A DNA stretch of 64,000 bases from Eledone cirrhosa (taxonomy: Eukaryota). The position numbers and the translations under genes were made by a program. Positions within the stretch are counted from its first letter, which is position 1. Each line of letters begins with the position of its first letter. The notes beneath the pieces were generated by a model, which was given only the letters and a program-made list of their open reading frames with translations, had not been told where the DNA came from and searched no databases. The stretch spans positions 88,412,001-88,476,000 of the forward strand of contig OZ024746.1 of the NCBI GenBank assembly GCA_964016885.1, in the 5' to 3' direction. Shown in pieces: positions 15,931 to 17,561 of this stretch.

Positions 15931-16460
15931 ACATACTACTGTATGTCTGTATACATATATGTATGTACGTGTACATACTTATATTTAAGTAACAGCCGTA
16001 CTAAGTGTGGGAAATGAAATTTCGTTCCATTTTTTCTATTTATCGTTTTCAGTGCACCCGGCCGATTAACCCACTCGATATGCAAATTGGGCTGCTCAGC
16101 CGTTAATGTGCATAAGGTAAGTATATACGTTCAACAATCTGGCAGGAAGGTATACGTTGCTGACGATAGCTAATAAGCTTGAAACTAGTAGAGCGTTCCT
16201 TTGTCAGTGTTGAACAAACGAGCAACGATAGTTGCTGGACACTACGGTTTAATACGGGATGTTTGTTTACAAACACACCGAGCATTATAATAAATGTTCG
16301 GTGAATCCATACGTACATATATATATATGTGCATGTATGTATATATATATACATACTACTGTACGTATGTATACATATATGTATGTACGTGTACATACTT
16401 ATATTTAAGTAACAGCCGTACTAATGGAGGAAACGAAATTTAGCTTCATTTTTTTCCGTT
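15931..16460 (+). mobile_element. Retrozyme-like non-coding element, family A copy 1 (~1.25 x 420-nt monomer)
   Basis: cagccgtactaa repeats at ~15993 and ~16413. Contains an HHR, has no credible ORF and ends in (TA)n. Confidence 0.75.
16154..16196 (+). ncRNA. Minimal type I hammerhead ribozyme (family A)
   Basis: acgttg-CTGACGA-tagctaataagctt-GAAA-ctag-TA-gagcgt. Palindromic stem III ACTAGT, GUA cleavage triplet. Confidence 0.85.
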
Positions 16461-16494
16461 TATATATATATATATATATATATATATATATATA

Positions 16495-17105
16495 TATAAG
16501 TATGTATATATTTATATATATATAAGTATGTATACGTACATATATATATGTATACAGTAGTATGTATATATATACATACATGTACACATATATACATGTA
16601 CGCATGGATTCACCGAACATTGATTATAATGCTCGGTGTGTTTGTAAACAAACATCCCGAATTAAGCCGTACAGTGTCTAGCAACCATCGTTGCTCATTT
16701 GTTCAACACTGACAAAGGAACGCTGTACTAGTTTCATGCTTATTAGCTATCGTCAGTAACGAATACCTTCCTGCCAGATGATTGAACGTCTGAATGTATA
16801 TACTTTTCTTATGCATATTAACGGCTGAGCAGCCTAATTTGCATATCGAGTAAGCTAATCGGCCGGGGTCCCGAAAACAATAAACGGAAAAAATGAAACG
16901 AAATTTCATTTCTCACTCTTAGTACAGCAGTTACTTAAATATAAGTATGTATACGTACATACATATATCTATACAGACGTACAGTAGTATATATATATAT
17001 ATATATACATACATGTACACATATATACATGTACGCATGGATTCACCGAACATTTATTATAATGCTCGGTGTGTTTGTAAACAAACATCCCGAATTAAGC
17101 CGTAC
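16495..17105 (-). mobile_element. Retrozyme-like element, family A copy 2 (~1.4 monomers), HHR at 16720-16762
   Basis: Reverse complement of copies 1 and 3. cgcatggattcaccgaacat repeats at ~16601 and ~17034. Minus-strand CTGACGA..GAAACTAGTA-cagcgt. Confidence 0.75.
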
Positions 17106-17561
17106 TAAGAGTGAGAAATGAAATTTCGTTTCATTTTTTCCGTTTATCGTTTTCGGTACCCCCGCCGATTAACTCACACGATATGCAAATTAGGCTGCTC
17201 AGCCGTTAATATGCATAAGGAAAGTATATACTTTCAGACGTTCAATCATCTGGCAGGACGGTGTATGTTGCTGACGATAGCTAATAAGCTTGAAACTAGT
17301 AAAGCGTTCCTTTGTCAGTTTTGAACAAATGACAACGATGGTTGCTAGACACTGTACGGCTTAATTCAGGATGTTTGTTTACAAACACACCGAGCATTAT
17401 GATAAATGTTCGGTGAAGGCATGCGTACAAGTATTTATGTGTACATGTATGTATATATACATACTACTGTACGTCTGTATACATATATATATGTACGTAT
17501 ATATACTTATATTTGAGTAACAGCCGTACTAAGAGTGATAAATGAAATTTCGTTTCATTTT
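17099..17561 (+). mobile_element. Retrozyme-like element, family A copy 3 (~1.1 x 424-nt monomer), HHR at 17265-17307
   Basis: gccgtactaagagtga.aaatgaaatttcgtttcatttt at 17099 and ~17523. atgttg-CTGACGA-tagctaataagctt-GAAA-ctag-TA-aagcgt. Confidence 0.75.

Follow-up and report, generated by a model that had tools for sequence, protein, structure and literature searches.

A high-copy hammerhead repeat of Eledone cirrhosa, probably a retrozyme inserted by Penelope-like machinery

How did several copies of one short repeat, each carrying a hammerhead ribozyme (HHR) and each beginning at another point of the same cycle, come to be inserted in the genome of Eledone cirrhosa, and was the RNA from which they were copied a circle? 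We addressed this question in a window of 64,000 nt (assembly GCA_964016885.1, contig OZ024746.1, positions 88,412,001 to 88,476,000), which is AT-rich, dense in microsatellites and contains scattered retroelement remains. An earlier note on this sequence had described a cluster of three copies of a ~420-nt HHR unit with a distant fourth copy, where copies 1 (+) and 2 (-) converge on one (TA)n tract and copies 2 and 3 diverge. Alignment to a tripled monomer confirmed both the copies and their orientations: the window harbors four copies of a non-coding repeat with a period of 424 nt, hereafter family A (Table 1). We numbered the cycle such that position 1 is the base after the predicted HHR cleavage site.

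The longest open frame in the 424-nt unit is 69 codons, the GC-content is 36% over the stretch of copy 3, and cycle positions 124-211 form a TA-rich segment. When this segment is excluded, the pairwise identity of the four copies ranges from 272/319 to 313/336. All four copies are longer than one unit (1.10-1.46 units), and each of them crosses the cleavage site exactly once and presents a single HHR; two HHRs were found in 0/4 window copies, and the public reads and contigs are too short to span a tandem. Copy 4, which ends 15 nt before a second cleavage site, is diverged and represents a separate subfamily: changes at cycle 70, 87, 103 and 114 are common to its two passes, it contains internal (TA)n expansions and (TA)n-like DNA flanks it on both sides. 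The 5' end of copy 1 falls within the TA-rich segment of the unit and its 3' end continues into (TA)n; the tract at 16464-16519 also has a short duplication of the last ~20 nt of copy 2. Within the window, we detected no sub-unit copies of similar identity, no tRNA gene or tRNA head, no convincing pol III boxes and no Rfam family at gathering score. Rfam miRNA matches were rejected, all of them being below gathering and all lying on TA-rich hairpins. A distant relative of family A, itself decayed and with a degenerate HHR in the corresponding position, was observed at 53738-53464 (-), on to 53264, and a homolog at 46504-46661 (+) (nhmmer E of 2.4e-6 and 7.6e-5; best of the reversed-sequence control, 0.61).

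Table 1. Coordinates of family A copies, their ribozymes and associated features in the window.
Feature	Position	Strand	Description
Copy 1	15920-16463	+	Cycle 145 to 270, 1.30 units
Copy 2	17105-16520	-	Cycle 53 to 211, 1.38 units; inverted 5' partner of copy 3
Copy 3	17098-17564	+	Cycle 221 to 263, 1.10 units
Copy 4	47806-47058	-	Cycle 16 to 211, 1.46 units
HHR core of copy 1	16160-16190	+	Predicted cleavage after 16190 (GUA); position 1.1 is G, consensus C
HHR core of copy 2	16726-16756	-	Position 2.1 is A instead of G; extra stem II mismatch
HHR core of copy 3	17271-17301	+	Predicted cleavage after 17301
HHR core of copy 4	47276-47306	-	GUU triplet, not GUA; U.G to G.U swap in stem I
(TA)n target tract	16464-16519		Common to the 3' ends of copies 1 and 2
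(TC)18(TA)37 target tract	17561-17671		At the 3' end of copy 3
8-nt inverted microhomology	17098-17105		Cycle 221-228 with 53-60; joins copies 2 and 3 5'-to-5'
RT fragment	47955-48817	+	43% identical to an 806-aa protein
PLE-type endonuclease C-terminus	42881-42663	-	Within 42881-42340
RT + GIY-YIG element	30719-33932		ORF end 31773-32738

Each copy presents a type I HHR with the core CUGANGA...GAAA...UH, three stems and an open helix I; CUGANGA, GAAA and the ACTAGT hexamer are present in all four. The extended stem I is composed of 6 bp, a bulge and 9 bp (in copy 3, it spans about 17241 to 17326 with its internal bulge), stem II of 4 bp above a mismatch (U.U in copies 1 to 3, C.A in copy 4), and helix III of 1 bp (A-U) capped by the palindromic CUAG, i.e., the self-complementary ACUAGU. 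Such stems are known from the canonical HHRs of animal retrozymes (PMC7229834, PMC4209133). A strict HHR descriptor yielded four matches in the window, namely copies 1, 3 and 4 and an unrelated site at 27593, and 0 matches in each of 10 shuffles; copy 2 escapes this descriptor due to its stem II mismatch. A whole-Rfam search returned 119 matches at E<=10, none of which was to a hammerhead family; because the Rfam hammerhead models give no match, the HHR call rests on the core sequence and the stems. The active three-way fold was absent from the MFE folds of the four HHR regions, and stem covariation across the four copies was not above shuffles (129/500).

Several lines of evidence bear on the activity of this ribozyme. 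The stem I pair 2.1-1.1, beside the cleavage site, is broken in all four window copies. The majority base at 1.1 in the reads of public run X13 is C (7537/7686 and 11000/11252; 98%), which restores this pair, and the U.G/G.U swap in stem I is common at 17268/17304 in public reads. Among the 40 variants listed out of 111, N7 is the sole one to fall within the core span; a single variable position across the 31 nt of the HHR is not significant (P = 0.25). These sequences suggest that the HHR is probably functional across the family and decayed in these window copies. The layout with a 1-bp palindromic helix III is said to need dimers (PMC4209133; PMC7229834) and, by analogy, the type I HHR of family A should work as a dimer via its palindromic helix III. 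We also observed, post hoc, that the base at cycle position 1 (16191, 16725, 17302 and 47275) is G, C, A and A, respectively, one of only 2/319 columns with three letters; the X13 reads argue against a general junction error at this position.

The earlier note further stated that the HHR is conserved while its flanks diverge, which our analysis does not support. Indeed, 26/31 HHR columns are invariant relative to 225/305 elsewhere (P = 0.15; Fisher test), other 31-nt windows of the unit present up to 27-29 invariant columns, and the HHR core has 11/12 invariant columns (P = 0.14). The unit as a whole presents a stable predicted fold (-128 kcal/mol; z = -5.4; 0/100 shuffles as good), to which the TA-rich segment contributes in part. 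When the unit is folded as a circle, 68% of its bases are paired, part of this pairing being given by the TA-rich hairpin.

We further analyzed where the copies begin and end. Their 3' ends fall at cycle 211, 211, 263 and 270, within a 59-nt arc (P = 0.011; simulation), and the 3' ends of copies 2 and 4 are the same base; the claim that each copy ends at a different point of the cycle was thus incorrect. In contrast, the 5' ends scatter in a manner compatible with random (P = 0.46). The 3' ends are preferred sites and not free permutations, and the scatter of the 5' ends resembles that left by ordinary truncation. The 3' ends of all four copies merge into (TA)n or (TC)n via a few shared bases, such tracts representing 6.9% of the window. 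Different endpoints on one cycle had been taken as the signature of reverse transcription around a circular RNA. What stands of this inference is an RNA-templated mobile unit with an HHR and more-than-unit copies; the endpoints fail as proof of a circle, because internal initiation on a linear tandem, or a template jump, would leave the same pattern. Nor would junction reads at GUA|N discriminate: the sequence restored by ligation at the HHR site is already uninterrupted in all genomic copies.

Public sequencing runs extend these observations beyond the window (4 of 15 runs mapped on copy 3, 17098-17561). Family A is highly repeated: 82,863 of the 12,467,656 records of run X13 (a RAD library) and 16,141 of the 17,142,217 contigs of run X1 map on copy 3, a mapping depth that does not equal copy number. 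In runs labelled as two other organisms, 614 and 133 contigs map on this copy. In X13, whose RAD reads sample loci unevenly, 5,230 reads exit the unit at cycle 211 into (TA)n and about 17,100 continue at the main joint. In X1, 63 contigs exit the unit at cycle 270 into (TA)n; the loose ends of this run are short (median 16 nt), and those at 270 may represent an internal (TA)n expansion instead of a 3' end. The end of copy 3 (263) has no recurrent counterpart among the 24 loose ends listed out of 803. A third 3' end within a hairpin loop at 17125/17126, which forms the largest pile (16,098 X13 reads, with low agreement), was rejected: it sits on an AATT site, all four X13 read-end places (17122, 17188, 17191 and 17366) are AATT sites, and the pile most likely results from restriction-site chimerism of the RAD library. 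On the RNA strand of 17098-17561, A<->G differences exceed C<->T differences (30:13 in X1, P = 0.006; 30:16 in X4, 35:23 in X13 and 17:12 in X6, these runs not being independent), and the window copies present 16 A>G relative to 9 T>C. The A<->G excess could reflect A-to-I editing of the template. Finally, pattern scans for family A yielded 0 loci in metagenome_contigs and 0 in viral_contigs.

The inverted pair formed by copies 2 and 3 contains no target DNA between its two arms. The 8-nt inverted repeat at which they meet is one of 9 such starts outside the TA-rich segment, and its two segments, 221-228 and 53-60, pair as a helix in the predicted RNA fold. The 3' end of copy 2 (211) and the 5' start of copy 3 (221) are 10 nt apart on the cycle, and the 3' end of copy 3 reaches about 52 nt past that of copy 2, forming a one-sided tail. 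This 10-nt spacing is the geometry of twin priming, a process known from L1. We rejected copy 2 as a fold-back copy of copy 3, which would need 1.38 units from cycle 53 when copy 3 holds only 53 to 263 past that point; because copy 2 is too long for such a fold-back, both arms were copied from a template. The self-redundancy of copy 2 (70/71) is closer than its match to copy 3 (313/336; P = 0.04), which counts mildly against one template molecule for the two. Copy 1 is more diverged; it was probably inserted earlier, its (TA)n tail then being used a second time. A single split two-HHR dimer composed of copies 1 and 3 with a 49-nt TSD was also rejected, as the segments are only 84% alike.

The anatomy of these insertions, i.e., a partial tandem, an inverted 5' copy, a one-sided tail and a microsatellite target, recalls Penelope-like elements (PLEs). 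The hallmarks of PLEs include 5' truncation, partial tandems, a directly adjacent inverted 5'-truncated copy, a 30-40-bp tail often found at one end only and a (TA)n bias that hides TSDs (PMC8557442). In vitro, a PLE protein nicks AT-rich DNA on both strands and extends both, and two initiation sites internal to the RNA set the tail (PMC11167929); the start site in those experiments is not homologous to the target, whereas family A presents short shared bases. Family A matches this insertion anatomy without encoding a protein. Our best explanation, with a probability of roughly three in four, is that family A represents a non-LTR retrozyme, non-autonomous and present at high copy, which a PLE inserted through target-primed reverse transcription initiated inside the RNA. 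Tandem or read-through transcripts would be cut at the type I HHR, acting as a dimer, and the cut RNA would be ligated into a self-paired circle of ~424 nt. As the footprints suggest, a PLE endonuclease supplied in trans would nick DNA at (TA)n or (TC)n, and reverse transcription would begin at preferred, AU-rich internal sites of the RNA (cycle 211 and 263-270); with internal initiation, no free 3' end would be needed. The copy would run back over the HHR site and stop after 1.1-1.5 units, as the copies present, leaving variable 5' ends. Copies 2 and 3, whose anatomy is directly visible, would constitute one PLE-type inverted insertion primed from both target strands, the two cDNAs being joined at the 8-nt microhomology, and copies 1 and 4 would be separate, older insertions.

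The window also contains proteins that we take to be PLE-type reverse transcriptases and endonucleases based on GIY-YIG matches and known motifs, their homologs carrying no names. At 47868-49260 (+), the RT fragment ends before the endonuclease and is followed by a 325-nt partial tandem and then by (TA)n; this unit differs from family A and presents a decayed minimal-HHR-like motif at ~49107-49150. The 806-aa homolog of the RT has a weak C-terminal GIY-YIG match (E = 0.012, below cut-off), and neither the RT fragment nor any of its first five homologs was assigned to a Pfam family. A solo homolog of the RT-attached unit (79%) was found at 5450-5860 (+); it too is a partial tandem, lies between microsatellites and has an HHR-like motif at 5711. 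This second family, both RT-attached and solo, may represent a PLE-to-retrozyme intermediate. At 42881-42340 (-), the endonuclease C-terminus precedes a degenerate minimal-HHR-like motif (42471), and the sequence then ends in (TA)n. The RT + GIY-YIG element, framed by a 486-bp perfect inverted repeat (30719-31204 / 33447-33932), is apparently recent; a decayed and partly inverted relative of it lies at 62061-63020. Family A was found neither contiguous nor homologous with an RT + GIY-YIG ORF in the window or among the 24 of 803 loose ends listed, and it presents no DNA similarity to any PLE end within the window. Other repeats of the window include a dispersed family with an internal palindrome of ~125-145 nt (12522-12738, 20727-20842, 26110-26304 and 42930-43134), inverted repeats (13191-13486, 19235-19552, 25461-25759, 26929-27447 and 27885-29488), some of which are near-perfect (299 nt at 97%; 111 nt at 100%), and a 41-nt minisatellite of about 20 copies (51492-52353). 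A ~200-bp SINE-like family, which presumably resembles octopod SINEs, is present in many dispersed copies and in tandem (2.5 units) at the window end (63493-63997).

The same element and the same PLE machinery could also have operated on a linear template, either a tandem transcript of master arrays that was left uncleaved or a monomer cut by the HHR, across whose ends the RT jumped, and we regard this as a serious possibility although a less probable one. None of the four copies crosses the cleavage site twice, copy 4 stopping just short of doing so, and the impaired look of all four local HHRs is what a preference for uncut RNA would predict; moreover, unprocessed RNA was the main substrate of an Anolis PLE, and HHR mutants were still inserted (PMC11167929). 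However, truncation of a linear template predicts many sub-unit copies, which the window lacks at similar identity, no master array was seen, and circles are the dominant form of the three animal retrozymes tested (PMC7229834). Published models of the retrozyme class include a circular template (PMC7229834, PMC4209133) and the production of more-than-unit cDNA from circles (PMC7761336), and circles were shown for coral, mussel and axolotl retrozymes (PMC7229834). Because all four copies exceed one unit and retrozyme circles are known (PMC7229834), we lean towards a circular RNA template for family A, by analogy with its class and given PLE-type priming. It is a more tentative suggestion, and a rather unlikely one, that the copies record the whole PLE cycle on circular RNA, with fixed internal starts, 1.1-1.5 turns, two-sided priming leading to inverted pairs, and possibly RT errors at the junction and A-to-I editing. 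If true, such a full record would open the enzyme and template question for animal retrozymes to genome-scale and in vitro tests.

Two further explanations depart from a retrozyme mobilized by a PLE. In the first, which is improbable, an autonomous PLE would have left its 5'-truncated ends as solo pseudo-LTRs. This would agree with the PLE footprints seen throughout, with the position of copy 4, 60 bp from the RT fragment at 47955-48817, and with the second HHR-like unit of the window, which is attached to that RT and also solo; however, (TA)n separates copy 4 from this RT, which has its own different unit, and the family A cycle closes without ORF sequence in 4/4 copies and in >17,000 X13 reads. 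In addition, an ORF-like loose end is absent among the 24 of 803 listed, and stem I of the HHR is long and canonical, not of the minimal PLE form (PMC4209133). Even less credible is an amplification at the DNA level with the HHR as a passenger, whether through satellite fragments, extrachromosomal circles or repair at fragile (TA)n tracts. DNA circles can produce permuted copies longer than one unit as well as joins at microhomologies, the HHR is not measurably more conserved than its flanks and the unit contains a TA-rich segment, but the ends are polar relative to the HHR strand (3' clustered, 5' scattered), which is not predicted from a double-stranded donor, and the length of copy 2 relative to copy 3 does not result from a simple fold-back.

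That PLEs mobilize animal retrozymes has been put forward as a hypothesis (PMC7229834, PMC7761336), for which the support so far consists of co-occurrence and pLTR homology (bioRxiv 10.64898/2026.07.22.740005). The retrozyme class and its PLE link are already in print, and family A is an otherwise ordinary new repeat. In the open full-text literature that we searched, we found no description of family A and none of retrozymes bearing the insertion scars of a PLE. A family that is present at high copy, bears such scars and has start sites that can be mapped provides an independent line of evidence for PLE mobilization, and family A constitutes a ready substrate for in vitro TPRT.

Family A resembles the animal retrozymes, which are described as non-coding units of 150-450 bp with a GC-content <50%, a type I HHR and a stable self-paired fold (PMC7229834). 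Its 1-bp helix III with a palindromic tetraloop is also found in HHR_Amex1 of the axolotl, and its U.U at the base of helix II in HHR_Amex2 (PMC7229834); the dimer-type helix III is reported as mainly amphibian, most invertebrate HHRs being active as monomers (PMC7761336). Among cephalopods, 235 Rfam hammerhead matches have been reported in the giant squid (PMC6962438). The retrozymes of coral, mussel and axolotl occur in tandem, from dimers to 62-mers, and their circRNA was shown (Cervera & de la Pena 2020, PMC7229834), whereas family A is composed of dispersed 1.1-1.5-mers with one HHR each. The passages of PMC7229834 that we drew on mention no retrozymes with microsatellite targets, inverted 5' copies or fixed 3' ends. 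Unlike plant LTR retrozymes, which present a type III HHR, two LTRs, a central region and a 4-bp TSD, family A has a type I HHR, no central region, no apparent LTR/PBS/PPT layout and no TSD beyond the microsatellite. The retrozymes of Xenopus were proposed to be non-autonomous PLE derivatives, and solo monomers are common in some of their families (bioRxiv 10.64898/2026.07.22.740005). By the definition given in that study, i.e., two consecutive HHR units, none of our four copies is an active retrozyme. The PLE link of the Xenopus retrozymes consists of pLTR homology and co-occurrence, whereas that of family A consists of insertion anatomy, with no homologous PLE in the window. Family A differs from EN+ PLEs (Neptune, Naiad and Poseidon; PMC8557442, PMC11167929, PMC4209133) in that its unit is without an RT/EN ORF, its HHR is canonical and not minimal, and its two ends are 52-59 nt apart, relative to a 30-40-nt PLE tail (PMC8557442). 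It nevertheless shares with these elements the partial tandems, the adjacent inverted 5'-truncated copy, the one-sided tail, the (TA)n targets with no clear TSD and the presence of the HHR in the repeated part.
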